Shown: positions 1-12,766 of the stretch, piece after piece
Numbering within the stretch: the stretch's first letter is position 1
Layout: every line of letters starts with the position of its first letter
From: Candidatus Woesearchaeota archaeon
GTDB lineage: Archaea; Nanobdellota; Nanobdellia; Nanobdellales; CAZNIQ01
Direction of reading: 5' to 3'
Length of the DNA: 12,766 nt
Assembly: GCA_964573185.1 (NCBI GenBank)
Contig: CAZNIQ010000021.1
Coordinates: 1 to 12,766 of the forward strand
Made by a program: the position numbers and the translations under genes
The notes under the pieces: generated by a model
Database searches by the model: none
What the model was told of the DNA's origin: nothing
Seen by the model: only the letters and a program-made list of their open reading frames with translations

Positions 1-2
1 TT

Positions 3-164
3 GGAACAGAATTAAAGCCAGAGGACCATTTAGTTTCATTATATTTTATTGTAAAACTTAAAAAGGGTGATTTTAAAAAAGTAGATTATGAAGAAATTTA
101 TAAGGAATTGGTTGAGAAAGGAATAATTACTCCTGATATAGGAGATGAAATATATAAGCATTGA
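3..164 (+). CDS. 3' end of an upstream CDS (53 codons plus stop). Function is not assignable. By position it could be an archaellum accessory gene preceding flaH.
   Basis: Frame 3 is open from the window edge: GTELKPEDHLVSLYFIVKLKKGDFKKVDYEEIYKELVEKGIITPDIGDEIYKH, with stop TGA at 162-164. It overlaps the flaH ATG (145) by 20 nt. It is absent from the ORF track because its start lies outside the window. I recognise no motif. Confidence 0.4.
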   Translation, partial: GTELKPEDHLVSLYFIVKLKKGDFKKVDYEEIYKELVEKGIITPDIGDEIYKH

Positions 165-834
165 AATAGACAGGGACGATCTGAATCAAAAATTAGGAGG
201 AGGGATACCTAGAGGTAGTTTAATGATTATTGAAGGTCCAGATGGAACAGGAAAATCAGTTTTATCTCAAAGAATAACGTATGGCGCTTTAGCTAATGGT
301 TCTTCTGTAACCTATATTTCTACAGAGCTTTCTACGTGGGATTTCTTAAAACAGATGAATTCATTAAACTATATAATTGATAATTATTTATTTAATGGTA
401 AATTATTGTTTTTAACATTAGTTCCTTTGTATGCCGATATTGAAGAAGGAGAAAATCTTATATTTAAATTAGAAGAATCGCCCCAACTTTTTGAAAGGGA
501 TATTCTTATAATAGATTCATTATCTTATCCTTTAGTATCGGAATTGTCATATAAAGAAGTTAAAGAGCTAGTTATGTTTTTAAATAAGGTAAAAGACGAT
601 AAAATAATTATTCTAACATATGATCCTGAATCGATTGATCAGAAATTGGTAAAAGAACTAAGGAGAATTGCAGATATATATTTTAAGTTAAAAATAGGTT
701 CCATTGCTGGTCAAAGAGTGAGATTTATCGAGATAGAAAGATTTAGAAACGCCCTAGATACCTACACACCAGTTATACCCTTCAGAGTTGAGCCTAAATT
801 AGGATTCGTTATAGAAATAGTATCAGTAGTATGA
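145..834 (+). CDS. flaH: Archaellum accessory ATPase FlaH/ArlH (KaiC/RecA-like, single domain)
   Basis: 229 aa. The N-terminus LGGGIPRGSLMIIEGPDGTGKSVLSQRITYG is the typical FlaH/KaiC-like opening with Walker A GPDGTGKS. A Walker-B-like hydrophobic strand ends in Asp (ILIIDSLS). Its stop overlaps the flaI ATG (ATGA at 831-834), which implies co-translation with the FlaI homologue. Confidence 0.85.
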   Translation: MKYISIEIDRDDLNQKLGGGIPRGSLMIIEGPDGTGKSVLSQRITYGALANGSSVTYISTELSTWDFLKQMNSLNYIIDNYLFNGKLLFLTLVPLYADIEEGENLIFKLEESPQLFERDILIIDSLSYPLVSELSYKEVKELVMFLNKVKDDKIIILTYDPESIDQKLVKELRRIADIYFKLKIGSIAGQRVRFIEIERFRNALDTYTPVIPFRVEPKLGFVIEIVSVV

Positions 835-3800
835 GGTTAAATCCTAAAAAAGCAAAAGTATTTATTGAAGAGAAAACAACAGATTTTCAAGAAGCTTTAA
901 GAAGATATCCGCATTTAAGAGAATACGTTCAGAAGGTTTCAGCAGAGTTAGGGATGCCAGATTGGAAAGTAGAATTAACAAGGGATCTTAGAGAAATAAA
1001 ATATCCAAATATAATTTATCCAGTAGGTGACCCAATTTTTATACATATTTATAGGAAACCGGGTGAGCCTGTGAAGTACTATGCCATAGAACCTCAATTG
1101 AATGCAAAAGAAAAAGAATTATTTAACAAAATAATGGATAAAATAACGCAAGCGGCAGTAAATCTACCTGTACCAAAATCAAAAGAAGATTTATACAATA
1201 ATCTTATAACATTATTTGAGAAATTCGTAGTTCCAAAAGATAAAGCTTCTGTAATAGATAGGCTAACAAAGATTGTAGTTCCAAGGGAAACTTATGACAA
1301 ACTTAGGTATTATTTAATTAGAGAGAGAATTGGATATGGAAAGCTAGAACCCTTGTTAAGAGATCCTTACCTTGAAGATATTCATGTTTTAGGTATAGGT
1401 CCTATCTGGGTTACACATAAGATTTGGGGTACTATGCAAACAAATTTGGCCTTCTGGGATGAAAAAGAGCTGAATAAATATATTATAAAAATGTCTGAAT
1501 TAGTAGAGCGTCCAGTCTCAGACGCAAGACCTATTGTTGACGCTATAATGCCTGATGGTTCTAGAGTTAATTTTATTTACGGTAAAGACATTTCTTTAAA
1601 AGGTTCTTCATTTACAATAAGAAAATTTACTAAAAAGCCTATATCAATAACTCAGTTAATTGCTTGGAATACCATGTCTGCAGAGGAAGCTGCTTATTTA
1701 TGGTTAGCAATAGAACACGGAATGAATATATTTGTAATCGGTGAAACAGCATCTGGAAAATCCGTTGCAGGGTATGAAAAAACTTTAGTGATATTTGATG
1801 ATAGAGTTGAATTGTTAAGTTTTGACGAACTATGGAAAAAATGGAATAAAAAAGAAATTAAGATAGGGAATTTTGTAGGAAAGAGGACCTGTTTCAAAAT
1901 ATATTCAATTGATGGCATAGATAAACCTATCTTACTTTTAAAACACGATTCCCCAGAGTATTTATATGTTATTGAAACTATAGGAGGAAGAAAGGTAACT
2001 GTAACCCCAGATCATTCCTTATTTGTATTAGATGGAGAAATAGGGGAAATAAAAGTTAAAAAACCAACAGAATTAAAGAAAAAAGATTATCTAATTTCCA
2101 TAAGAAGGTTAAAGCTTCCCGAGAAAAAGTTATCCAAAGAGGAAATAATAAAAATAATCGGAAATTCAAGATATAGGGATAAAATAAAAATTGAAAATGA
2201 TTATTTAGTATGTGGAAGTGGAAAAGTAAAGATAGATTATATAAACTCTGAAAAATTTGCATTTTTGTTTGGTATATTCATAGCTGAAGGAACATTTGAT
2301 CATAAAGGTGTTAAAATATTTAATAAAGATGAAAAAGTAATTAAAACTATAGAATCTTTTGCAAAAGATTTAGGTTTCCATGTAAAAATAGTTAAACCAA
2401 AGAATAGAGTTCCATATGTATTTCTTGGAAAACTTGCTGAATATTTATTCAAAATTTTTGGTTATGAAAAGAAAAGAATTCCATGGATCTTCTGGACAAT
2501 GCCAAAAGAATGGAAAAAAGCATTCTTAAGAGGTTTATTTACAGGAGATGGTGCTGTTACTGATAGAGGCGTTGAGATAGTAACTAGAGATAAAGATTTA
2601 GCAGATGATTTGATTTATGCTTTATCAACTTTCGGAATTTTTGCTTCTAAATATGAAAAGAAAATTAATGGAAAAACTTATTATAGAATTGAGATATCAC
2701 GATACTGGTTAGAAGAATTCTTAGAAATAGGTTTCCTTCAAGAGGAAAAAAATGAAAGAATAAGAAAATTAATAGAAAAGCAAGATTATTTTAGATCGGA
2801 GCACGATATTATTCCAAATGTTTTACTGAAAAAATACTGGAAAGAAATTGAAAAGTATTCAAAATTATCCGGAGATATATTTAGAAAAATTGGAATTTAC
2901 AATGGGAGAAATATAAGTAGAAAGCCACTAAGAAAATTATTAGAAAAAGTGGATCCTGAAAAGAAATTATTGAAGAACTTATGGTCATTAGTTGAATCTA
3001 ACTTACTATTTTTAAAAATAAGAAAAATAGAAAAAATAAAAAGTGATTCTAAGTATGTTTATGATTTTGAAGTTCCAGGATCACAAAGCTTCTTAGCAGG
3101 AGATTTAATTATAGTTCATAATACAACAACATTGAATGCACTAACTGTTTTCATTAGACCAGATTGGAAAGTTTATTCTGTTGAGGACACTCCTGAGGTA
3201 AATATTCCGCATCCAGTATGGCAAAGAACTGTTACCAGAGAAGCTGGAAAGCAAACAGATGTTGAGATGTATGATTTGTTAAAAGCTGCCTTAAGATCTA
3301 GACCTAATTATATAATAGTTGGGGAAATACGTGGTAAAGAAGCTTATGTAGCGTTTCAAGCGATGCAGTGTGTAAAAGATGCTCAAGTAGTTTTAGGAGA
3401 TGATGTTAAAAGTATAAAAGAGATATTTGAAGAATATAAAAAGAAATATAGAAGTAAGAGTATTGATGGAAAAGAAATAGTTGAAATAAAGGAAAATTTG
3501 GAGATTCCCGCTTTTGATCCAAATATAGGATTAACTAAAGCAAGGGTTAAGGCTATTTTGAAGATGCCTAAAAGCAGGTTAATTAAAGTTGTTTTAGAAG
3601 ATGGAAACGTATTTGAAGTAACCCCAAATCACAAATTTATAACTCGTTATGGCGAAATCGAAGCTAGAAATCTAAAAGAGGGATTAAAAATAATAACATT
3701 TAATGATAAATTATCAAAAATAAAGGAGGTAGAAATTGTTGAAATAAAAAAAGTAAATAAAGATAATACATATGATTTGTTATTAGAAGGGGCCAAATAT

Positions 3801-4316
3801 TATATAGGCTTTACAGATGGTAATCCTATTCCCTTAGAAGATACGGGACACCCTGTGCTAAGCACTATGCACGCAGGATCAGTCAGGCAGTTAATTGAAA
3901 GACTTACGGGACCCCCGATGAATGTTCCAATAACTTTTATAGATAACTTAAATATAGTTGTTTTGCAAGGAACAGTTTTCATCAAAGGAAACATGGAAAG
4001 AAGAGTGTTATCTATAACAGAAATAGAGAGATATATACCTGAAATAAATAGAATAGCTACAAGAGAAGTTTTTGTCTGGGATAAATTAAAGGATAAACAT
4101 GTTTTTAGAGGAAAATACAATTCTTATATTTTAGAATATAAAATAGCTCCAATGATGAGATTAAAGGATAGGAGAAAAATATATGAAATATTGGAGTTAA
4201 GGAAAAGGATTTTGGAAAGAATGGTAGAGGAAAAGATATTTGATTTCTTCGAAGTATGGAATGTTATAAGAAGATTCTATGAATATGGAATAGAAGGCTT
4301 GCCTTTCAGCTTATAA
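831..4316 (+). CDS. flaI: Archaellum motor ATPase FlaI/ArlI (type II/IV secretion NTPase superfamily), precursor containing two inteins. The predicted spliced product is 549 aa.
   Basis: The 1161-aa ORF has exteins at 831-1760 (310 aa), 3123-3368 (82 aa) and 3843-4313 (157 aa). Joining them restores Walker A GETASGK/TTTLNAL, the Asp-box/Walker B PNYIIVGEIRGKEAYVAFQAMQ, and the His-box /TGHPVLSTMHAGS. It lies immediately downstream of flaH and overlaps it. Confidence 0.9.
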   Translation: MRLNPKKAKVFIEEKTTDFQEALRRYPHLREYVQKVSAELGMPDWKVELTRDLREIKYPNIIYPVGDPIFIHIYRKPGEPVKYYAIEPQLNAKEKELFNKIMDKITQAAVNLPVPKSKEDLYNNLITLFEKFVVPKDKASVIDRLTKIVVPRETYDKLRYYLIRERIGYGKLEPLLRDPYLEDIHVLGIGPIWVTHKIWGTMQTNLAFWDEKELNKYIIKMSELVERPVSDARPIVDAIMPDGSRVNFIYGKDISLKGSSFTIRKFTKKPISITQLIAWNTMSAEEAAYLWLAIEHGMNIFVIGETASGKSVAGYEKTLVIFDDRVELLSFDELWKKWNKKEIKIGNFVGKRTCFKIYSIDGIDKPILLLKHDSPEYLYVIETIGGRKVTVTPDHSLFVLDGEIGEIKVKKPTELKKKDYLISIRRLKLPEKKLSKEEIIKIIGNSRYRDKIKIENDYLVCGSGKVKIDYINSEKFAFLFGIFIAEGTFDHKGVKIFNKDEKVIKTIESFAKDLGFHVKIVKPKNRVPYVFLGKLAEYLFKIFGYEKKRIPWIFWTMPKEWKKAFLRGLFTGDGAVTDRGVEIVTRDKDLADDLIYALSTFGIFASKYEKKINGKTYYRIEISRYWLEEFLEIGFLQEEKNERIRKLIEKQDYFRSEHDIIPNVLLKKYWKEIEKYSKLSGDIFRKIGIYNGRNISRKPLRKLLEKVDPEKKLLKNLWSLVESNLLFLKIRKIEKIKSDSKYVYDFEVPGSQSFLAGDLIIVHNTTTLNALTVFIRPDWKVYSVEDTPEVNIPHPVWQRTVTREAGKQTDVEMYDLLKAALRSRPNYIIVGEIRGKEAYVAFQAMQCVKDAQVVLGDDVKSIKEIFEEYKKKYRSKSIDGKEIVEIKENLEIPAFDPNIGLTKARVKAILKMPKSRLIKVVLEDGNVFEVTPNHKFITRYGEIEARNLKEGLKIITFNDKLSKIKEVEIVEIKKVNKDNTYDLLLEGAKYYIGFTDGNPIPLEDTGHPVLSTMHAGSVRQLIERLTGPPMNVPITFIDNLNIVVLQGTVFIKGNMERRVLSITEIERYIPEINRIATREVFVWDKLKDKHVFRGKYNSYILEYKIAPMMRLKDRRKIYEILELRKRILERMVEEKIFDFFEVWNVIRRFYEYGIEGLPFSL
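1761..3122 (+). mobile_element. Intein 1: full-length intein (454 aa) with a LAGLIDADG homing endonuclease domain, inserted in the FlaI P-loop
   Basis: It starts with Ser (SVAGYEKTLVIFDD, block A-like). Block B is VTVTPDHSLF (TxxH). The two LAGLIDADG motifs are FAFLFGIFIAEGT (about 2262-2294) and AFLRGLFTGDGA (about 2520-2555). Blocks F/G are YVYDFEVPGSQSFLAGDLIIVHN, followed by Thr at +1. Removing it gives GETASGKTTTLNAL. Confidence 0.85.
3369..3842 (+). mobile_element. Intein 2: mini-intein (158 aa, no endonuclease domain) inserted just before the FlaI His-box, with an atypical C-terminus ...PLED
   Basis: It starts with Cys (CVKDAQVVLGDD, block A-like). Block B is VTPNHKF. The block F-like stretch is NTYDLLLEGAKYYIGF. 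The block G position reads TDGNPIPLED and is followed by Thr at +1. Removing it gives FQAMQ/TGHPVLSTMHA, the usual FlaI/GspE-family His-box context. Confidence 0.7.
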
Positions 4317-5010
4317 GCTTTAGATATAATTCTTGAAAATCTAGTTTTAATCCTAATTTGTTAAAAAATCTTACAATATTTTGTAAATCCTTTTTTAAAT
4401 ATTCTAACGCGTTATGTGCGTGTATTGGTAAAGCTTGAGAAACATCTATTATTACAGGTCTTTCTTTAAAATTTAATATATTGAATTCTGATAAATCTCC
4501 ATGAACTAATTCTGCTTTTTTAATCATTTTTTCTATATTTTTCCAAAGTTTATCCCAAAATTTTTTAGGATCTTCCGGATATTTATCTTTTAATAAAGGA
4601 GCTGGAACTCCTTTTTCTCCAATAAATTCCATCACTAGGACATTTCTGTAAAAAGCTATTGGCATAGGAACTCTAACTCCAGCTTGGTACATTTTATTCA
4701 AATTTCTGAATTCTTTCTTAACCCATTCCAAAACTATTGCAACTCTCGATTTCTGAACGCCATGAAATCTTGGATCTTCAATTAATTTTTCATACATCCT
4801 CTTGTAGTCTTTAACCATTACTTTGTATATTTTTACTGCAACATATTCTCCTGTTTTGTCTATTCCTAAAAAAACTGAAGCTTCTTTTCCTATTGAAATT
4901 GGAGATAAAATATCTTTGAGATAACCAGAATTAACTAATTTATCTATTGCTCTAATAGTGCTTAAATCAAAAACGTCCTGATAAACTTTCCATAATTCTC
5001 TATACCTCAC
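4306..5010 (-). CDS. rio1: RIO-type serine protein kinase, Rio1 class (no N-terminal wHTH of Rio2)
   Basis: 234 aa. The flexible/ATP loop is SPISIGKEASVF, followed by VAVKIYK (Lys), the catalytic loop LVHGDLSEFNIL and the metal-binding IDVSQA. The start codon is GTG at 5010-5008, overlapping the aCPSF1 TGA stop (GTGA). The 3' end overlaps the flaI 3' end by 11 nt. Confidence 0.85.
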   Translation of the reverse strand: MRYRELWKVYQDVFDLSTIRAIDKLVNSGYLKDILSPISIGKEASVFLGIDKTGEYVAVKIYKVMVKDYKRMYEKLIEDPRFHGVQKSRVAIVLEWVKKEFRNLNKMYQAGVRVPMPIAFYRNVLVMEFIGEKGVPAPLLKDKYPEDPKKFWDKLWKNIEKMIKKAELVHGDLSEFNILNFKERPVIIDVSQALPIHAHNALEYLKKDLQNIVRFFNKLGLKLDFQELYLKLIS

Positions 5011-6890
5011 CTTAACCTAATAGCGTCAAGATTTTTCGGAACATAAACATTCACATTTATATTTTGCTTTTTATACAAAGATTTTATTCCAGATGCTAGT
5101 TCAAATGGTTTTGGGGGTTCTCCATGAACTATTACTACATTTTTTGGCTTTGGATTTAACTTTGATACAAACTTCAATAGTTCTTTCCTATCGGCATGTC
5201 CAGAAAAACCTTCAAACCTTTGAACTTTTAATCTAACTTTTACTAACTCCCCATTAATATTTACTTCCTTTGCACCATCTAAAATCAACCTTCCAAGAGT
5301 TCCTCTCGCTTGGTAAGATACAAAAGCTAATAAGTTCCTTGGATCCTCTGCTCCTAATCTAAAGTAATCTACAATTGGACCTCCATTCATCATACCTGAA
5401 GTTGCTATTATTATTGCAGGTTTGTTCTCATTCATTATATTTTCTCTATCTTTCGGAGAAGCCCTATATATGAATTCTGCTTCAAAGGGATTCTCTCCCC
5501 TTTCAATTTCTTCTTTTAACTCTTTGCTTAAAAATTCTGGATAAGCAGTATGAATCATAGTAGTTTCCCAAAGAACTCCTTCAAGATACACATCTACTGG
5601 GGGTAATATTCCTTGTTTTACAGCATCTATAATTAATAGTAAGATTTCTTGAGCTCTTCCGACAGCTAAAACAGGTATTAAAACTTTTCCCCCTTCAGAT
5701 AATGTTTCCTTTACTGCTTCCAAGAATTTCTTTTCAGTTTCTTCTCTAGAAGGGTGTATATCGTTTTTTCCACCATATGTGCTTTCCATAATCACTGTTT
5801 CTAACCTTGGAAATATTGTTTTTGGAGGATCTAATAACCTTGTTTTGGAAAACTTGAAATCACCTGTATACAAAATATTATGCAAGCCATTCCCTATATT
5901 CAGGTGTACCATTGCAGAACCTAAAATATGACCCGCATTATGAAATGTAATTTTTATATCTGGTGTAATATCAGTTACTTCTCCGTAATTTAAAGTTATA
6001 GTGTGTTTTAACATTTCACGAATTTCTGAAGAAGAATATAATGATTGCTTGTTTTGTTGCTCCGAAACTTTGATATAATCTAGGCATACCAAAGCAGCTA
6101 AATCTCTTGTTGGCTCTGTCATATAAACAGGGCCTTTCCAGCCTAATTTAAATAAAAAAGGTAGCAATCCAACGTGATCCAAATGTGCATGAGTTATTAT
6201 TACTGCATCTAATTTTTGTATATCGAATTCAGGAGCATCTAAATGTGGAAAAGCGTCTGGACCTGTGTTATTTACACCTATTCCAAAATCTAAAAGAACA
6301 TTTGATTCCGGGGTTTGCAAGAGAATAGCAGATCTCCCCACTTCTTGTCCAGCTCCCAAAATACTTATTCTAACCCACTTTCTTTTAGATTTCGTTCCCC
6401 AACCAGCAACAATTTTTTCTCCAACTTTATGTAACAATTTTTTTCTTTCTTCAGAGACAGAATATAAATAAGCTCTTATAGCATCTATAATCTTTGAACT
6501 CTGTATAGGAGCCCTCTTAACTTTCGGTATCAATAATGTTTCTTCTTTTATCTTTTCTAATATTTCATCTGTGATTTTCTCAGGTCTTAAACATTCTATT
6601 ATTACTATACTTCTAGCTCTCTCGATATAGATGTTTCTTAATTCCGCTTCCTTTGGAACTATTTTTTCAATCCTTTCTTTTATAACATCATCTTCTGGTA
6701 AAAGATTTGGATCTATTCTAATTTCAAATCTTTTTTTAAATTCCTTAGCTAATTTAGCACCAATTTCCTTTCCTTTAAGAAATAGTTCTTTATCTTTAAC
6801 ATAAATTACAATTAAAGGTCCTTCGAAAACTACTTCAGAGACTTTATCCTTCGGTAGTTTCTTAAGTATTTCTTCTTGTATTCGCAACAT
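5007..6890 (-). CDS. aCPSF1: aCPSF1 (FttA-type) RNA-processing/termination nuclease: N-terminal KH domains plus metallo-beta-lactamase and beta-CASP domains
   Basis: 627 aa. The roughly 170-aa KH-like N-terminus is followed by ISILGAGQEVGRSAILL, the MBL motif VIITHAHLDHVG (HxHxDH), ESTYGG, and C-terminal GFSGHAD and VHGE motifs typical of beta-CASP enzymes. It sits next to psmB, a gene pairing I recall from Methanocaldococcus and Methanothermobacter. Confidence 0.9.
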   Translation of the reverse strand: MLRIQEEILKKLPKDKVSEVVFEGPLIVIYVKDKELFLKGKEIGAKLAKEFKKRFEIRIDPNLLPEDDVIKERIEKIVPKEAELRNIYIERARSIVIIECLRPEKITDEILEKIKEETLLIPKVKRAPIQSSKIIDAIRAYLYSVSEERKKLLHKVGEKIVAGWGTKSKRKWVRISILGAGQEVGRSAILLQTPESNVLLDFGIGVNNTGPDAFPHLDAPEFDIQKLDAVIITHAHLDHVGLLPFLFKLGWKGPVYMTEPTRDLAALVCLDYIKVSEQQNKQSLYSSSEIREMLKHTITLNYGEVTDITPDIKITFHNAGHILGSAMVHLNIGNGLHNILYTGDFKFSKTRLLDPPKTIFPRLETVIMESTYGGKNDIHPSREETEKKFLEAVKETLSEGGKVLIPVLAVGRAQEILLLIIDAVKQGILPPVDVYLEGVLWETTMIHTAYPEFLSKELKEEIERGENPFEAEFIYRASPKDRENIMNENKPAIIIATSGMMNGGPIVDYFRLGAEDPRNLLAFVSYQARGTLGRLILDGAKEVNINGELVKVRLKVQRFEGFSGHADRKELLKFVSKLNPKPKNVVIVHGEPPKPFELASGIKSLYKKQNINVNVYVPKNLDAIRLR

Positions 6891-6904
6891 TTTAGAAAAC
6901 GTAA

Positions 6905-6930
6905 TTATTTAAATAAGTAAAATTTAAAAA
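6905..6930 (-). promoter_or_regulatory. Candidate TATA/BRE region for aCPSF1
   Basis: The 45-nt AT-only spacer between the psmB stop (6936) and the aCPSF1 ATG (6890) holds a palindromic TTATTTAAATAA (6905-6916) and TTTTTAAA on the minus strand (6923-6930). Either box could place a transcription start at or just upstream of the ATG. There is no experimental support. Confidence 0.3.
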
Positions 6931-6935
6931 ATTAA

Positions 6936-7562
6936 TTAAGTCTCGATGATTTCCTTTATTGGGATATACTCTCTTTCTACACCCTTATCTGAAATGCTCA
7001 CTATTTCTATTCCATCACCTGAACCAGCATCCCTTTTAATTGCGGCATAAACCGCTTTCTTAGCCAATTCTTTTGCCTCTTCTAGAGTAAGATTCTCTTT
7101 ATAATTAGCTTCTAGAACTCCTAATGCAAACATCATTCCAGAACCTTCAGCGTAATATTTTTTCTCTTCAATTACAGAACCTATTGGATCCAGAACATAT
7201 AAGTTCCAGCTACCATTATCTTTTCCGGCGACTATCAAAGCTACCATATATGATGTAAAGTAAAATCTTTTAGAATATAATATCGTAGCTAAAAGGTTTG
7301 CAGCTTCTTTTGCAGTAGGCTCCTTTCCACTTCTTAGTTGTTTTAATGTTAATTCGGCTTTTAATACTTTTGCTAAAACTTGTAGATCTGCAACAACACC
7401 AGCAGCAGCTAAAGCAATTTTATCTGTAATTTGATATATCTTTTGAGCGGATTTACTTGCTATTATGAAATATTCTGTTGCTCTCTTATCAGAAGCTAAG
7501 ACCACTCCATCTTTTGCAACAATACCAACAATGGTAGTACCAGTCTTAAAAACTTTCTCCAT
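6936..7562 (-). CDS. psmB: 20S proteasome beta subunit (Ntn hydrolase) with a short propeptide
   Basis: 208 aa. MEKVFKTG/TTIVGIVAKDGVVLASDKRAT carries the propeptide-Gly-Thr1 junction, with Asp17 and Lys33 equivalents (SDKR ... SAQKI). The later GSG motifs are typical of proteasome beta subunits. Confidence 0.9.
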   Translation of the reverse strand: MEKVFKTGTTIVGIVAKDGVVLASDKRATEYFIIASKSAQKIYQITDKIALAAAGVVADLQVLAKVLKAELTLKQLRSGKEPTAKEAANLLATILYSKRFYFTSYMVALIVAGKDNGSWNLYVLDPIGSVIEEKKYYAEGSGMMFALGVLEANYKENLTLEEAKELAKKAVYAAIKRDAGSGDGIEIVSISDKGVEREYIPIKEIIET

Positions 7563-7591
7563 TTATCTTTAGATATAAAAAAAGATAAAAA

Positions 7592-8656
7592 CTATTTGCT
7601 AACGAAAAGAGCTTCTATCTTAGGTATAACATAATAAATGTATTTATTCCCTTCCCTTCTCCTTTTTACTAATCCCATATCCATTAATCTCTTAAGAATA
7701 TTGTTCACTGCTCTCAAAGCGTTTTGCCTATCTTTATATTCTGATAAGTCAATGTATTTTAGTATGTCTGAAGTTGCCAATGGACCTTTTGTAGCTAGAA
7801 TCTCTAGTATCTTTCTTTGTTTTGGTGTTAATGAATCCAAGATTCTAAATATATCTTCTTTTGTTCTAAACTTCTCAAAAACAGCCTCTTCCACAACAGT
7901 GTGATCTATTTCCTTTATATTATTTCTAAAAGCATACTCACAAACTTTTGCCGCGATCTTTAAAACTTCCCTTGGCAAACCTCCAGTAATCTCGTGTATC
8001 TTGCTTATAGCTTCTTCCGTAAAGGGTTTTATCCCGTCTCCTCCAGCCTTTTCTATTCTCTTTTTAATTAGCAAATAAACTTCTGTTCTCGATAAAGATC
8101 CTAAAGATACCTTTGTTGTTACCCTTTCATATAAAGTTGTTAGGTTTTCTTTTACGAAGTTTTCAAAATGTGGTAATGCTGCAAAAATAATAGAAACTTT
8201 TTCTATTTGATCTGAAAAAACTCTTAACCATTCTAGAACATCAACATTTGTTTCATGTGCCTCATCAATCAATAAAACTAAATGTCTTCCTTGAAGCTTA
8301 GAATTCACATATTTATGAAGATTATATATAGTTGGCTTTCCTTTAAGAATTCTTTCAAAGAGAGACATTGGGAATTGCTCCAAGAATATATCTCTAAATT
8401 CAAATTTATCCTTAGGCGGTTTAACTAAGTACATCAAGATCTTATTTTCATTTCTATAGTTCTTTAATAAATATTGTAATAGGGTTGTTTTTCCAGATCC
8501 GGTAGGTCCTAAAAGCAAAGCTACTCTTTCCTCTTCATCAATGAAGTTTTTTAATTCGTTTACTTGATTTTCATACCCTACAAATGTATCGGGATCGACT
8601 TTCAATGAAAAGGGATTCTCTTTCCAACCAAAATACTCATAAAAGGTTTTAGCCAT
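7592..8656 (-). CDS. ExeA-like (AAA_22 type) P-loop ATPase with a C-terminal winged-helix DNA-binding domain. Function is unknown.
   Basis: 354 aa. The N-terminal YFGWKENPFS matches the ExeA-family Y-F-G-L-x-E-x-P-F opening. Other matches are Walker A LLGPTGSGKTTLLQYL, Walker B LVLLIDEAHE followed by VLEWLRVFSD, and LSRTEVYLLIKKRIEKAG. The C-terminal LTPKQRKILEILATKGPLATSDILKYI ... LKRLMDMGLVKRRREGNKYIYY looks like a MarR/TrmB-type wHTH. Confidence 0.7.
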   Translation of the reverse strand: MAKTFYEYFGWKENPFSLKVDPDTFVGYENQVNELKNFIDEEERVALLLGPTGSGKTTLLQYLLKNYRNENKILMYLVKPPKDKFEFRDIFLEQFPMSLFERILKGKPTIYNLHKYVNSKLQGRHLVLLIDEAHETNVDVLEWLRVFSDQIEKVSIIFAALPHFENFVKENLTTLYERVTTKVSLGSLSRTEVYLLIKKRIEKAGGDGIKPFTEEAISKIHEITGGLPREVLKIAAKVCEYAFRNNIKEIDHTVVEEAVFEKFRTKEDIFRILDSLTPKQRKILEILATKGPLATSDILKYIDLSEYKDRQNALRAVNNILKRLMDMGLVKRRREGNKYIYYVIPKIEALFVSK

Positions 8657-8669
8657 AAATATATGTGAA

Positions 8670-9743
8670 ATGAAAATGAACTTAAAATTAACTTCACGTG
8701 CAGATTTATATCTTGTTCACGGAAAGGTACCTCATTATCATGAAATGGTTAACCTATCTAGATACATCCTTAAATTAATGATAGAAGATTTAGGATTGGA
8801 TGAAACGGTACGAAGGTTTTCAAATGCAGCATGGTTTCAATGTTTAGCTTCAGTTTTAGGAATGGAATGGTATACTTCTGGTTCTACCACTGTTGTTTTT
8901 AAAGCTCTAAAAGAAGCTTCAATAAAAGAAAATTTACCTATTAAGTTTTTAGGGGGAAAAGGCAAAGATGCAATAAATATTCAAAAAGAAATAGAAAAAT
9001 ATGATCTAGATGGGAAATTTAAAGAAATATCAATAATTACTGTTAAAACTGATAATGCGTTAATACAAGACTCTTTTCAAATATATTTTCACGGAATGAT
9101 TATTGGAGAGAAGGAATATGTTGTTATAAATCAAGGAATGAATGAAAAGGAAAGATTAGTTAGAAGATATCATTGGTTAAGTCCAGAAGATTTTAGAGAA
9201 GATCATTTTAAATCAGAAACTAATAAAGTTACTTTAAATTTAGCACACAGGAAAATAGAGGAAACGAGAAAAGCTATTCTGGATTTATTACAAGAGCCCA
9301 TTGAAAGAATACAAAGATACTTTATTACGGTAAAAAATACTTTGGAAAATAGGACGTTATCTGAATATTTTGAGAACATAAAAATTATAAGGTTACCATA
9401 TTACCTTAAGCTCCCTAAAAAGTTAGATTTAAAAGTAATTGAGAAAGCAAGAGAAGTTATAGAGTTTAAGGAGTTGCTTAAAATAAAAGGATTGGGTCCA
9501 GCAACTTTTAGAGCATTAGCATTAATAGCTTCAATAATTTATGGAGAGCCTTTATATTGGGAAAAACCTGAAATATATTCTTATGCGCACGGAACAAAAT
9601 CTGGAAAACCATACTTTGTTAACAAGAAACTAATGTTAGAAAGCGCTGAAATCCTTAAAGAAATAATAGAAAAACTTCCTAAAGAATATAGAGTAAAAGC
9701 AATGAGAAGATTGGCAAGAACTACTGGGGCCGCCGGGATTTGA
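8670..9743 (+). CDS. DUF763-family protein with a helix-hairpin-helix motif near the C-terminus. Function is unknown.
   Basis: 357 aa. From memory, the N-terminal ADLYLVHGKVPHY ... RRFSNAAWFQCLASVLGMEWYTSGSTTVVFKALKE resembles the conserved DUF763 core (LPLHxGxxP ... WFQ ... DWHSSG-TT ... LKE). IKGLGPATFRALALIA is HhH-like. The last 19 nt overlap the 3' end of the convergent tRNA gene. Confidence 0.65.
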   Translation: MKMNLKLTSRADLYLVHGKVPHYHEMVNLSRYILKLMIEDLGLDETVRRFSNAAWFQCLASVLGMEWYTSGSTTVVFKALKEASIKENLPIKFLGGKGKDAINIQKEIEKYDLDGKFKEISIITVKTDNALIQDSFQIYFHGMIIGEKEYVVINQGMNEKERLVRRYHWLSPEDFREDHFKSETNKVTLNLAHRKIEETRKAILDLLQEPIERIQRYFITVKNTLENRTLSEYFENIKIIRLPYYLKLPKKLDLKVIEKAREVIEFKELLKIKGLGPATFRALALIASIIYGEPLYWEKPEIYSYAHGTKSGKPYFVNKKLMLESAEILKEIIEKLPKEYRVKAMRRLARTTGAAGI

Positions 9744-9830
9744 ACCCGGGACCTCCCGGTCTTCAGCTTCGCCACGGGTAAGGTGCGCCCTTACCCGTAC
9801 GGGCGCTCTCCCGGGCTGAGCTACGGCCCC
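9725..9830 (-). tRNA. tRNA-Phe (anticodon GAA) with a 32-nt intron at non-canonical position 30/31. No CCA is encoded.
   Basis: The minus-strand read is GGGGCCG TA GCTC AGCCCGGGA GAGC G CCCG[intron]G CTGAAGA CCGGG AGGTC CCGGG TTCAAAT CCCGG CGGCCCC A. The acceptor stem has 7 bp, the T arm 5 bp, the D arm 4 bp and the spliced anticodon stem (CCCGG/CCGGG) 5 bp. All of them pair perfectly. The anticodon loop is C-U-GAA-G-A. The mature length is 74 nt with 55 G+C by my hand count. Confidence 0.9.
9768..9799 (-). other. tRNA intron (32 nt) bounded by a bulge-helix-bulge splicing motif
   Basis: The intron is TACGGGTAAGGGCGCACCTTACCCGTGGCGAA. Exon CGCC pairs with intron GGCG to form the 4-bp central helix. 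It is flanked by the 3-nt bulges CG|T and AA|G, and both cleavage sites fall after the second bulge nucleotide. The intron also forms a perfect 10-bp hairpin, ACGGGTAAGG/CCTTACCCGT, with loop GCGCA. Confidence 0.85.
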
Positions 9831-9856
9831 GCTAAAGATTTATTTCTTAGAAAGAA

Positions 9857-9864
9857 ATTTTAAA
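9857..9864 (-). promoter_or_regulatory. Candidate TATA box (TTTAAAAT, preceded by a purine-rich CAAAA BRE-like stretch) for tRNA-Phe
   Basis: On the minus strand TTTAAAAT lies 27-34 nt upstream of tRNA nucleotide +1 (9830). That is the spacing expected for an archaeal promoter giving a very short 5' leader. Confidence 0.45.
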
Positions 9865-9868
9865 TTTT

Positions 9869-9916
9869 GTGATGAAAGGACCGAACGCTGAATATGATGA
9901 GGGAATATTAATCTGA
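9869..9916 (+). ncRNA. C/D box sRNA (guide for 2'-O-methylation) with two 12-nt guides
   Basis: The element order is C box GTGATGA (9869-9875), a 12-nt guide AAGGACCGAACG (9876-9887), D' box CTGA (9888-9891), 2 nt, C' box ATGATGA (9894-9900), a 12-nt guide GGGAATATTAAT (9901-9912), and D box CTGA (9913-9916). All four boxes are perfect and both spacers are exactly 12 nt, which is the canonical archaeal architecture. I see no obvious terminal stem. Confidence 0.75.
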
Positions 9917-10639
9917 TCCGTATAAAAACCTTGCAAGATTCTTTTGTATAATTTTTTTCAATTTATCTATTGGAACGCTCTTTACTTTCGAAATATACTC
10001 CAATGTCAATTCTATTAAACTTGGAGAGAGCTTTAGACCTCTATAATCATAAGGACCATCTGATTCTGTTAGTATATTTTTTAAATCTGCTTTTTTAAGA
10101 ACCTCTTGATGTTTCTTCTGTATTCTAATTGCAGGATTTATTCCAATAAAATACCCTTTTTCTTGAATTTCTTCTAATAAATCTAAAGGTCCAGTATACC
10201 AGTGAAAATAAGCTTTCTTTATATCATATTTCAACAATAAATCAAAAACGTCCCTCCAAGCATCCGGAGCATGAAGATTTAAAGCTAAATCATATTCCTT
10301 AGCTAGCTCTAAAAAATACTTAAAGAATTCCAATTGTTTATCAAATGTTTCAGGAACAAATTTTTTATCTAACCCTATTTCTCCTAAAACTGAAATTTCA
10401 TATTTTTCAACTAACTTTTTTATCTTTTCAAGATCTTCTTTTGAATGCTTATGGACTTCCCATGGATGGATTCCAACAGCAGGAATAATATGTTCATATA
10501 ATAAAGAGAGATGAATTGTTTTATAAGAAGAAGAGATATCATCTGAAACTGCTAACAAAATATATTTATCTTTAGGCCATCTTCTCAATTCAGTTTTTTC
10601 ATATTCATACAAATGCACATGTGCATCTACAATCTTCAT
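9908..10639 (-). CDS. tatD: TatD-family metal-dependent hydrolase/DNase
   Basis: 243 aa. The N-terminus MKIVDAHVHL carries the HxH metal site. Other matches are GIHPW, the GEIGLD motif, LNLHAPDA (His), YFHWYTG (His) and LTESDGPY (Asp). Together these cover the usual TatD amidohydrolase-fold ligand pattern. The ATG overlaps the upstream gene's TGA (ATGA at 10636-10639). Confidence 0.85.
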   Translation of the reverse strand: MKIVDAHVHLYEYEKTELRRWPKDKYILLAVSDDISSSYKTIHLSLLYEHIIPAVGIHPWEVHKHSKEDLEKIKKLVEKYEISVLGEIGLDKKFVPETFDKQLEFFKYFLELAKEYDLALNLHAPDAWRDVFDLLLKYDIKKAYFHWYTGPLDLLEEIQEKGYFIGINPAIRIQKKHQEVLKKADLKNILTESDGPYDYRGLKLSPSLIELTLEYISKVKSVPIDKLKKIIQKNLARFLYGSD

Positions 10640-12681
10640 TTAACTATTAGCTTAGTTACTATTAAAGAAATTACTGCTAAAGCTATATATGGTAATAAAT
10701 CTGTCATTTTTATACCTATTTTGTTATACATGATATATACTTTTGTAATTCTGTCACCTATCCTAGCGTATATTTCTTTTAAACCGGAAGTCTTAGGAAT
10801 AACACTCCTCACCATATATGTATAACCCGTTAAAGTAATGTTCTCACATTTTTCATATTCATTTCTAATGCCATAACAAATTTTTGTCTTAATTGGTATT
10901 TTCGAACTCATTTCGATTTTAATCAGATAAGGGGGCTCCTTTTTTAACAAAGTTATGTTTAAGCTAATATATCTTGTTGCATTTATAATTTTTATTTTAA
11001 ATATTCTGCTTTCATTCAAAAACCTAAAATAAAAAATGTGGGTTCCCTCTATTGTTGGAACCTTTATCTTTATTATTTTGCTCTCCTTCGGTTTTATTAA
11101 GAACTCCCATTCTCCTAAATCAGAGGAGATATTTAATGTTAGTTCCTTACTTAACATATTGTTCACGCGGAAGTTCACAAAAGTTTCATTAGCTACAGCG
11201 TAAATAGTATCTTGTAAAGGTTGGATAATAACTTTCCCAAATTCCCTTGGAATAACCGTAATCAACACCCATCTCGGTCCATAAGAAACATTTAGGACTA
11301 TTTTATGTTCCGGGATTTTAAAAACTAATTCGTAAGAGTTTTTGCCAATATTTCTTATAATACAACTGTAATTTACTTTTAAATTGTATTTTGGACAAAA
11401 ATTGTTAGTTTTAATATAAACAATTGTTTTTATCGTGCTTTGAGGTGTCCCATATATGGGATTTTCATAGAAGATCTTTATTTCACATTCCCTCTTCTCT
11501 ATTTTAAATGCATATAACCTAGGCACCTTTATAACAATGTATTTTCCTTGTTTGACGTATTTTACTTTTTCCCAACCGGATATGCAGGAATCTCCATAAT
11601 TTTTACAAACAAAGACTTCAAAGAAGTCGAAAGGAGTATACAAATAAACTATAGCTTCTTCAAAAGAGAAGTCTGCGGAAAAGTTATAGATAATAGAGTC
11701 ATTTGTTGATCTTAATTTATAATATAATATCAACTTATCTTTTAATTCTGGCGATAGGAAAACAATAGAGAACTCATCAGTAGATACTACTATTTTTGCT
11801 TCCTCTGGTAACATAAACTTATGTTTTACATCTTTTTTATCATATAGAACTTTTCTTTTGAATTCAACTTTTAAATGATAATCTCTATCAAACCCTTCTA
11901 TCCAAAAAGTTGAATTCACAGTATTTATAACACGAACTATTTTACTTTCATTCAAAATCCTTATTATAAGTTTTCCAGGATGTTTTGGGCAATATCTTAT
12001 ACTCCCGCTACCCACAACATTAAAAGTTTCATTATCTATAGTTATATTTACTCTTTCTAGATTAGTTTTGTATGTTATATTGAAACATTCTCCTAAGAAA
12101 ACCTCTTCCGGAACTTCTAATAAAAGAACTTGTGGGTTGTACCTCACATAATAAACTAGAGTTTTATTTATGCACCTAACAGCGTCACAGATTACCCATG
12201 TTATAATATTTCTTCCAACATTTATATTATCTGGAGAAATTCTGTTTCCATAAAATATTTTTCCATTTACGATCGCATATATTTTTGTTATCCTAAAATC
12301 ATCTTCAGCCTCTATCCAAAATGTATAATTGTTTACTGGCAAACTATTGTTTGAAGGATAGAAACCATAAGAAATTATTTTTGGAGGTTCAGAGTCAATA
12401 CATACATGAAAAGTATCTGTTGCCATTCTTCCCACTAGATCAATTGCCTCAACAGTTATGTTATAGCAACCAGAATCCAATTTTATTTCTTTACAATTAA
12501 AAGCTTCCTTTACAGTATTTAAATAATAATAACAAGCTTTTAAACCAGTATCATCAGAAATATTGAATCTAAGAATGGAAGAAGGTAAAATGGTGTTATT
12601 TTGAAAGTATGGTATTATTTTTGGAGGATGAGTATCTATAACAAGAGTAAATATTCCCAAAGCTAAAAGAAGAGGCAACAT
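10636..12681 (-). CDS. Large secreted, C-terminally membrane-anchored, Cys-rich putative surface glycoprotein with no recognisable family
   Basis: 681 aa. It has an N-terminal hydrophobic signal-like segment (MLPLLLALGIFTLVI) and a C-terminal TM anchor (LLPYIALAVISLIVTKLIV). By my hand count it has 21 N-x-S/T sequons and about 15 Cys. Two consecutive roughly 80-aa modules each start with PPKII (aa 19 and aa 99). The first module ends in an Ig-like-domain-style signature, ITVEAIDLVGRMATDTFHVCID. Its start overlaps the upstream stop (TAATG). Confidence 0.7.
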   Translation of the reverse strand: MLPLLLALGIFTLVIDTHPPKIIPYFQNNTILPSSILRFNISDDTGLKACYYYLNTVKEAFNCKEIKLDSGCYNITVEAIDLVGRMATDTFHVCIDSEPPKIISYGFYPSNNSLPVNNYTFWIEAEDDFRITKIYAIVNGKIFYGNRISPDNINVGRNIITWVICDAVRCINKTLVYYVRYNPQVLLLEVPEEVFLGECFNITYKTNLERVNITIDNETFNVVGSGSIRYCPKHPGKLIIRILNESKIVRVINTVNSTFWIEGFDRDYHLKVEFKRKVLYDKKDVKHKFMLPEEAKIVVSTDEFSIVFLSPELKDKLILYYKLRSTNDSIIYNFSADFSFEEAIVYLYTPFDFFEVFVCKNYGDSCISGWEKVKYVKQGKYIVIKVPRLYAFKIEKRECEIKIFYENPIYGTPQSTIKTIVYIKTNNFCPKYNLKVNYSCIIRNIGKNSYELVFKIPEHKIVLNVSYGPRWVLITVIPREFGKVIIQPLQDTIYAVANETFVNFRVNNMLSKELTLNISSDLGEWEFLIKPKESKIIKIKVPTIEGTHIFYFRFLNESRIFKIKIINATRYISLNITLLKKEPPYLIKIEMSSKIPIKTKICYGIRNEYEKCENITLTGYTYMVRSVIPKTSGLKEIYARIGDRITKVYIMYNKIGIKMTDLLPYIALAVISLIVTKLIVK

Positions 12682-12766
12682 TATATTTCTTTCAATCCTG
12701 CATTTTTAACGATTATTTCTCCCTCATTTTCTTTTACAACTTTTTCAAACTCTATCCATATTCTTT
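12681..12766 (-). CDS. 3' end of an upstream minus-strand CDS (27 codons plus stop), unknown product
   Basis: The minus-strand frame is open from the window edge: RIWIEFEKVVKENEGEIIVKNAGLKEI, with stop TAA at 12683-12681 sharing one nucleotide with the next ATG. It is not in the ORF track because its start is outside the window. Confidence 0.4.
   Translation of the reverse strand, partial: RIWIEFEKVVKENEGEIIVKNAGLKEI

Follow-up and report, generated by a model that had tools for sequence, protein, structure and literature searches.

A mini-intein ending in aspartate in the archaellum ATPase gene flaI of a Woesearchaeota archaeon, and its relatives in archaeal FlaI and FlaI-like ATPases

To our knowledge, there is essentially a single characterised example of an intein with a C-terminal aspartate, and the chemistry of the third step in the splicing of such inteins is unsettled. 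The example is Chy RIR1, from the ribonucleotide reductase (RNR) of the thermophile Carboxydothermus hydrogenoformans, which reportedly spliced in the hands of Amitai, Dassa and Pietrokovski (J Biol Chem, 2004; a study cited in PMC4031507 and PMC4760082). A second point of reference is the archaeal Mja KlbA mini-intein, which has no penultimate histidine and belongs to class 2 (Ala1, no N-terminal nucleophile), with a terminal Asn and Cys+1. According to reviews, a terminal Asp, Gln or Glu can cyclise in step 3, probably by the mechanism that Asn uses, and functional inteins can be without the penultimate His (PMC4031507; PMC7664689); the Gln-terminated Pab and Mma Pol II and CIV RNR inteins, for instance, are of class 1 and cyclise their non-Asn residue in step 3 (PMC4031507). 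Archaeal inteins in COG0630 'VirB11' ATPases number 21 in the count of Novikova et al. 2016 (PMC4760082) and are catalogued there in Crenarchaeota, Euryarchaeota and other archaea, in a main text that, where it deals with them, gives neither sites nor termini. Here we describe the second of two inteins in the flaI gene of a Candidatus Woesearchaeota archaeon, within a stretch of 12,766 nucleotides (contig CAZNIQ010000021.1, positions 1 to 12,766; the window). This intein ends in Glu-Asp, and we judge it likely to be a splicing-competent class 1 mini-intein from a small archaeal lineage, seated in FlaI and FlaI-like ATPases, that carries Asp in place of the terminal Asn. That Asp- and Gln-ended inteins exist was stated in an original prediction made from the letters of the window alone, and the reviews bear it out (PMC4031507; PMC7664689).

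With the NCBIfam FlaI equivalog model NF058587 the host protein reaches 649.7 bits, above the cut-off of 550. The features of the gene and of its second intein are as follows, with a slash marking splice junctions here and below.

831-4316, + strand: open reading frame (ORF) of the FlaI (archaellum motor ATPase) precursor, 1161 amino acids (aa), with two inteins within
3369-3842, + strand: intein 2, a class 1 mini-intein (HINT domain) of 158 aa (aa 847-1004), in the His box FQAMQ/TGHPV
3369-3371, + strand: Cys1 (TGT, codon 847), the block A nucleophile; Cys in 13 of the 14 sequences of alignment A2
3621-3632, + strand: block B T85-P-N-H88 (TxxH); T85 and H88 invariant in A2
3771-3776, + strand: block F Y135-D136 (F:4 Asp); both invariant in A2
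3795-3797, + strand: Lys143, at the position of the block F His (F:13) of canonical inteins, an equivalence deduced from the block F pattern
3837-3842, + strand: block G terminus Glu157-Asp158 (GAA GAT, codons 1003-1004), not His-Asn; D158 invariant in A2
3843-3851, + strand: Thr+1 (ACG, 3843-3845), the C-extein nucleophile, then Gly-His of the FlaI His box; TGH invariant in intein-free orthologues

Two clean insertions appear when the precursor is aligned with nine intein-free FlaI orthologues of ~556 aa (alignment A1). The top matches in a search of 5.8 billion proteins are FlaI proteins that are of the same length and come from Nanopusillaceae and other nanoarchaeal metagenome-assembled genomes (MAGs), and the best 120 FlaI homologues are all of 566 aa or less. 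The second insertion, of 158 aa, falls exactly between the invariant FQAMQ and TGHPV, and because no residue is shared across the junction its boundary has no freedom to shift. Its sequence is CVKD...TPNH...YDLLLEGAKYYIGFTDGNPIPLED, with Thr as the next residue. The original prediction had put an intein with a Glu-Asp end before Thr at 3369-3842, and these coordinates prove exact to the base; the junction it chose, QAMQ/TGH, is the one that the nine orthologues set, and the class 1 N-terminal half it described, with Cys1 and a TPNH block B, is confirmed by the codons, by an alignment of 14 family sequences (A2) and by the NCBIfam model of the intein N-terminal splicing region (39.2 bits, cut-off 24.5). 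No match to intein 2 comes from TIGR01443, the model of the intein C-terminal region, which ends in HN. Of the class 1 characters, insertion in a conserved motif, the HINT fold, Cys1, TxxH, the F:4 Asp and Thr+1 are all present, and the block G penultimate His and terminal Asn are absent. With 158 aa, Intein_splicing as the sole domain match and no LAGLIDADG or HNH insert, the element is a mini-intein.

Other parsings were considered and rejected. The original prediction had seen no canonical Asn junction nearby, the only candidate Asn (in DGN) being followed by Pro, and this stands: a junction at DGN/P would offer no nucleophile in Pro, would add six residues to the exteins and would rest on an Asn that is not conserved, the position reading GGR, GGG or NGY in relatives. 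Assignment to class 2 or class 3 was likewise rejected, since the intein has Cys1 and carries Asp at block F position 4, where class 3 has Cys.

Relatives were gathered by an exhaustive HMMER search (1.84 billion cluster representatives), a scan of GTDB species genomes, and a metagenome scan with the six closest sequences as the query. The family is sharply separated, its members scoring at least 95 bits in the N-terminal domain and all other Hint domains at most 62. The original prediction had proposed looking for orthologous FlaI inteins and their termini, and there are 11 other complete ones at the same FlaI His box, in flaI genes of nanoarchaea and of other archaea, together with four clearly homologous inteins at a second site, GPTF/TIRKF, in FlaI-like ATPases (372 bits, below the FlaI cut-off). 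All of them end in Asp.

P0121 (locus L011), a 711-aa FlaI with a 162-aa mini-intein: His box, ...SIAIED/TGH
P0122: His box, ...AIPIED/TGH
L001, Nanoarchaeota archaeon YN1, AP031373.1: His box, ...AIAIED/TGH
P0123 (locus L005): His box, ...PIPLED/TGH
L003: His box, ...PIPLED/TGH
L002, MAG S141: His box, ...IIPIED/TGH
P0133: His box, ...LCYVED/TGH
P0135: His box, ...ISFVFD/TGH
P0138: His box, ...FYFVND/TGH
L006: His box, ...MSYTYD/TGH
P0177: host His box reading TGA, ...AMPIQD/TGA
P0137, P0180 and P0203: site F/TIRKF, ...FD/TIR
P0194: site F/TIRKF, ...YD/TIR

Four of the hosts (P0121, P0123, P0133 and P0138) score above the cut-off of the FlaI equivalog. At the C-terminal junction Asp is followed by Thr in 16 of 16 complete members, the window included. 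The penultimate residue is Glu in half of these (8/16, again with the window) and otherwise Phe, Tyr, Asn or Gln; because the wider clade does not conserve the Glu, it is the terminal Asp, not the penultimate Glu, that is the feature that matters. The original prediction had called a Glu-Asp end unusual, which holds for inteins at large and needs refining for this family, where it is the commonest terminus at the His-box site (8/12). Glu-Asp is the ancestral family state and not a recent loss, and the PIPLED terminus of the window recurs identically in P0123 and L003. Only eight columns of A2 are invariant (F20, T85, H88, F90, A99, Y135, D136 and D158), and the position equivalent to F:13 holds K, R or H in 13 of the 16 members (GAKYY, GGRYY, PCKFF, PDHFY, GAHYY). 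In a rough scan of the non-family Hint domains of the same hit proteins there were 72 xN[CST] junctions, 58 of them HN; the few apparent D or Q ends were rejected as mis-parses, with HN visible downstream. Because no non-family Hint domain in the hit set truly ends in Asp, the Asp terminus is, within that set, specific to the FlaI and FlaI-like intein clade.

Several hosts have further peculiarities. P0177 (767 aa, GC-rich) carries an insert that starts with Tyr and not Cys (FQTMQ/YVEDAY...) and ends in ...PIQD, in a host whose His box is TGAG and not TGH; this could be an intein in decay, its host a paralogue that is degenerating, or else another kind of variant. The FlaI-like ATPase P0180 has, besides its Asp-ending intein at F/TIRKF, an unrelated canonical intein (residues ~946-1390; Ser1 ... 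ILHN, Ser+1) at the same His-box position (FQGMA/SGH), and a single ATPase, the 2097-aa P0203, apparently contains three inteins, with the Asp-ending one at F/TIRKF in the middle. Inteins have invaded the His box independently, which makes it a hot spot for them.

Family members score 22-35 bits with Pfam Intein_splicing (window 3369-3842; L001 6001-7446; L002 1716-2429), under the cut-off of 35.8, and because they fall below this threshold they are easily missed in annotation; the precomputed annotation of P0121 lists T2SSE only. The Asp-ending FlaI family is likely under-annotated. Word-index protein searches, with insert 2 alone or with the 14-sequence alignment, returned no matches, though relatives of 70% identity exist. 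Loci L007-L010 of the metagenome scan were set aside as unrelated ribonucleotide reductase inteins drawn in by the block B pattern.

The fold of the insert agrees with its sequence motifs. AlphaFold, given insert 2 with three flanking residues on each side and an 11-sequence family alignment, returned a model with a predicted local distance difference test score (pLDDT) of 91.7 and a predicted template modelling score (pTM) of 0.85, as against a pLDDT of only 40.3 from the single sequence. A Foldseek search of the PDB with this model gives template modelling scores normalised to the query (TMq) of 0.79-0.83 to RadA, VMA, CDC21 and KlbA intein structures, the named matches at ~0.8 being the Pho RadA, Tvo VMA, Pab and Pho CDC21-1, Mvu TFIIB and Mja KlbA mini-inteins; the Pol II mini-intein structures 5bkh, 2lcj and 7oec are also among the matches. 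A sequence search with the family profile leads to the same structures (4o1s at 2e-16, KlbA at 3.5e-11). By this predicted structure and these matches, insert 2 is a HINT domain like those of archaeal mini-inteins. Its intein identity and its Asp terminus are far beyond chance, given a HINT fold modelled at that confidence and an Asp terminus in all 15 complete relatives.

Set beside the described systems, intein 2 shares with Chy RIR1 its class 1 organisation and a terminal Asp, whereas Chy RIR1 is bacterial with an RNR host and intein 2 is archaeal in FlaI. Neither Chy RIR1 nor any Asp-ending RNR intein occurs among the 107 sequence relatives of intein 2 (no direct sequence comparison of the two was made), and because Chy RIR1 is not among these relatives the two Asp termini probably arose independently. 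Chy RIR1 is moreover a single described example, where the FlaI family is a whole clade with an invariant Asp. The Pol II and CIV inteins resemble intein 2 in a non-Asn residue that cyclises in step 3 but have Gln, not Asp, and other hosts, and some of them are improved by reversion to Asn. Mja KlbA (MJ0781; PDB 2jmz; TMq 0.82) is an archaeal mini-intein in an ATPase of the FlaI/VirB11 superfamily and has a similar block F ('YIAGKNE'); intein 2 differs in having Cys1, a terminal Asp and Thr+1, and the two families lie clearly apart by hidden Markov model (HMM) scores. Tvo VMA (4o1s), Pho RadA (4e2t/4e2u) and Pab CDC21-1 (6rpp), the best structure and profile matches, share the HINT topology and the helix after block A but have canonical His-Asn or X-Asn ends and unrelated hosts.

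The closest relative, L011, allows the constraint on the gene to be estimated, with rates by Nei-Gojobori that are approximate as dS, the synonymous rate, is near saturation. Between the window and L011 the exteins are 93.8% identical in amino acids (dN, the non-synonymous rate, 0.033; dS 1.18; dN/dS 0.028) and intein 2 is 69.6% identical (dN 0.194; dS 0.98; dN/dS 0.20). Rough as they are, these values clearly point to strong constraint on FlaI in both lineages, even with the insert in its His box, and to purifying selection on intein 2. The window copy retains all invariant and near-invariant family residues in A2. The original prediction left three possibilities, of which the first, a functional atypical intein, is the one we favour, because the Asp is invariant in all 16 members and because both intein and exteins are under purifying selection; that all 15 complete relatives share the Asp end argues for a working atypical intein and not a broken one.

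We infer that intein 2 splices and that step 3 of its splicing proceeds through an anhydride, as follows. In step 1, Cys1, aided by Thr85 and His88 of block B, would form a thioester at Gln-1/Cys1, and in step 2 the Thr+1 hydroxyl would take the N-extein to give a branched ester, with assistance from Asp136 of block F. In step 3 the side-chain carboxyl of Asp158 would attack its own backbone carbonyl to form a cyclic anhydride, not a succinimide, and release the intein, and in step 4 an O-to-N shift would restore the peptide bond, yielding a His box reading FQAMQTGHPV and an active FlaI. Step 3, with Asp158 cyclising in place of Asn, would be the sole departure from the standard class 1 pathway. 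Both of the usual step-3 helper histidines are missing from intein 2, the G:6 His being replaced by Glu157 (variable in relatives) and the F:13 His by Lys143; the Asp carboxylate may have its partner in the Lys, Arg or His at the F:13-equivalent position.

Several points weigh against a splicing-competent intein or against this chemistry. Chy RIR1 reportedly did not tolerate an Asp-to-Asn change, with C-terminal cleavage nevertheless persisting after Asp-to-Ala (Amitai et al. 2004); simple Asp cyclisation may therefore not be the whole of the step-3 mechanism. The extein motif places a constraint of its own on Thr+1, for which reason its conservation is by itself no proof that it acts as the nucleophile. 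The Intein_splicing score of insert 2, 28.5 bits, is under the gathering cut-off; the near-saturated dS makes the dN/dS values for both exteins and intein approximate; and P0177, with Tyr1 and its TGAG host, illustrates that members of the family can decay.

Among the other explanations, one that we regard as unlikely is that intein 2 is splicing-impaired or strongly conditional, with most FlaI held as an inactive precursor and released at a certain temperature, pH or redox state as a gate on archaellum assembly. Carboxylate chemistry would be slow; both step-3 helper histidines (G:6 and F:13) are absent; the Gln-terminated Pol II inteins are slow to splice (PMC4031507); a precursor interrupted in the His box should be inactive, judging from the known role of the motif in the ATPase superfamily; and the carriers look like low-GC thermophile-type archaea. 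The proposal is compatible with the data, which hold nothing positive for it. Most close FlaI orthologues are intein-free, from which no host function is required, and the invariance of the Asp across the family suggests an optimised active site and not a crippled one. The alleles moreover cover the full range of a homing cycle, with members of 391-690 aa bearing LAGLIDADG-type inserts at the same loop, the endonuclease-bearing class being put at 479-690 aa, the 238-aa intein of L002 with an endonuclease remnant, minimal forms of 158 aa in the window and 162 aa in P0121, and most FlaI alleles empty; endonuclease-bearing, mini and empty alleles side by side are the pattern of a selfish mobile element.

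The splicing domains of P0123 and L003 are 51-52% identical to that of the window where the exteins are 44-45% identical, and in the closest pair, window and L011, the order is reversed (intein 70%, exteins 94%). Because those splicing domains are nearer to the window than their exteins are, opposite to what the closest pair shows, the comparison suggests that the intein has been transferred horizontally between distantly related archaeal hosts, possibly symbiont and host lineages.

It is quite improbable that intein 2 is a decaying relic that lost first its endonuclease and then block G, no longer splices and is turning flaI into a pseudogene. The missing endonuclease and HN, the reduced genomes of Nanoarchaeota, the lack of a flaJ adjoining flaI in the window and the example of P0177 would fit such decay, but the ORF is intact over 1161 codons, the exteins remain 93.8% identical to those of L011 under strong constraint, the dN/dS of the intein itself points to constraint, and every invariant and near-invariant intein position is kept; nor would decay account for a Glu-Asp end that is ancestral in the family, with PIPLED shared by P0123 and L003.

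We consider it very unlikely that the HINT domain cleaves without ligating, in the manner of Hedgehog or bacterial intein-like (BIL) domains, to leave two FlaI fragments or to serve another role. BIL domains are among the HINT domains with non-Asn termini, and the BIL structures 2lwy and 6y75 appear as lower-ranked fold matches to insert 2. BIL domains sit in variable regions of bacterial secreted proteins, and domains of the BIL and Hedgehog kinds, in secreted or signalling proteins, require no +1 nucleophile capable of ligation; intein 2 is archaeal, lies in a catalytic motif of a cytoplasmic ATPase, and has Cys1 and a +1 nucleophile, a context unlike that of BIL or Hedgehog domains. In fold and in profile it is matched best by true archaeal inteins, its relatives bear LAGLIDADG homing endonucleases, and a FlaI cut through its His box would be unlikely to function. 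There is practically no chance of an artefact, either a GAT misread for AAT, for which a single A-to-G change would suffice and no actual support was found, or a true junction at a canonical Asn elsewhere: the misreading, raised in the original prediction, is excluded by an Asp codon in seven independent assemblies (GAT in five, GAC in two, after GAA or TAC), and the extein alignment fixes the boundary with no conserved Asn near the C-terminus.

The remaining annotated features around intein 2 are its companion intein and the upstream gene.

1761-3122, + strand: intein 1, 454 aa (aa 311-764), canonical, within Walker A (GETASGK/TTT)
145-834, + strand: FlaH (KaiC-like ATPase; PF06745, 66.3 bits), directly upstream of flaI

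Intein 1 runs from Ser1 to VHN, followed by Thr+1, and contains both an Intein_splicing domain (95.4 bits) and a homing endonuclease (LAGLIDADG_3, 79.7 bits); the intein C-terminal model, ending in HN, matches intein 1 only (residues 742-765). It is absent from the FlaI of the closest relative (P0121/L011, 5001-7136) despite the 93.8% extein identity, a presence/absence polymorphism that suggests recent homing or precise loss.

FlaH upstream gives flaI its archaellum operon context, and the gene order FlaC/D/E-FlaH-FlaI is found also in L011 and L001, the L011 contig (GCA_054017035.1) being syntenic with the window through these genes. No flaJ follows flaI in the window (4306-5010, - strand), in L001 of Nanoarchaeota YN1 (8001-9272) or in L011 (7126-7272), and in all three genomes the gene for the archaellum platform must have another location. 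Downstream of flaI in the window is a block encoding a RIO kinase, FttA/aCPSF1, proteasome beta, an AAA/ORC-like ATPase and DUF763 (4306-9743); it is inverted in L011 (7126-12136) relative to the window, and DUF763 is there split into two separate ORFs. An antisense ORF of 106 aa (3800-4120, - strand) across the junction of intein 2 and the C-extein shows no sign of being a gene and most likely arose by chance, the DNA being AT-rich. A 681-aa ORF (10636-12681, - strand), which has no Pfam match at E<=1e-5, has a hydrophobic N-terminal segment and a C-terminal membrane anchor-like tail, and its product may be a surface protein.

In the literature searched, no description was found of a FlaI intein or of an Asp-ending intein family, matches on a C-terminal aspartate being rejected as extein residues or unrelated proteins. 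Intein 2 joins the known atypical Asp-terminated kind in a clade that is apparently undescribed, and it appears to represent neither a new mechanism nor a defect. The 16 natural sequences, at ~30-70% identity and two insertion sites, keep the Asp while the penultimate residue drifts, and they provide comparative material for how a carboxylate replaces the Asn amide; the family could also yield inteins with C-terminal cleavage controlled by pH or heat. In its furthest form, which we think unlikely, the proposal would be of a monophyletic and previously undescribed clade at Thr+1 sites of archaeal type-IV-filament ATPases, with an obligate Asp, Lys or Arg for the block F His, and pH- or temperature-gated splicing, which would make it a natural archaellum-assembly switch in hyperthermophilic nanoarchaea and their neighbours, spreading by homing. 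Such gating would follow because the carboxyl needs protonation or other activation before cyclising. For some nanoarchaea, the archaellum motor ATPase must need two successive protein-splicing events for assembly.

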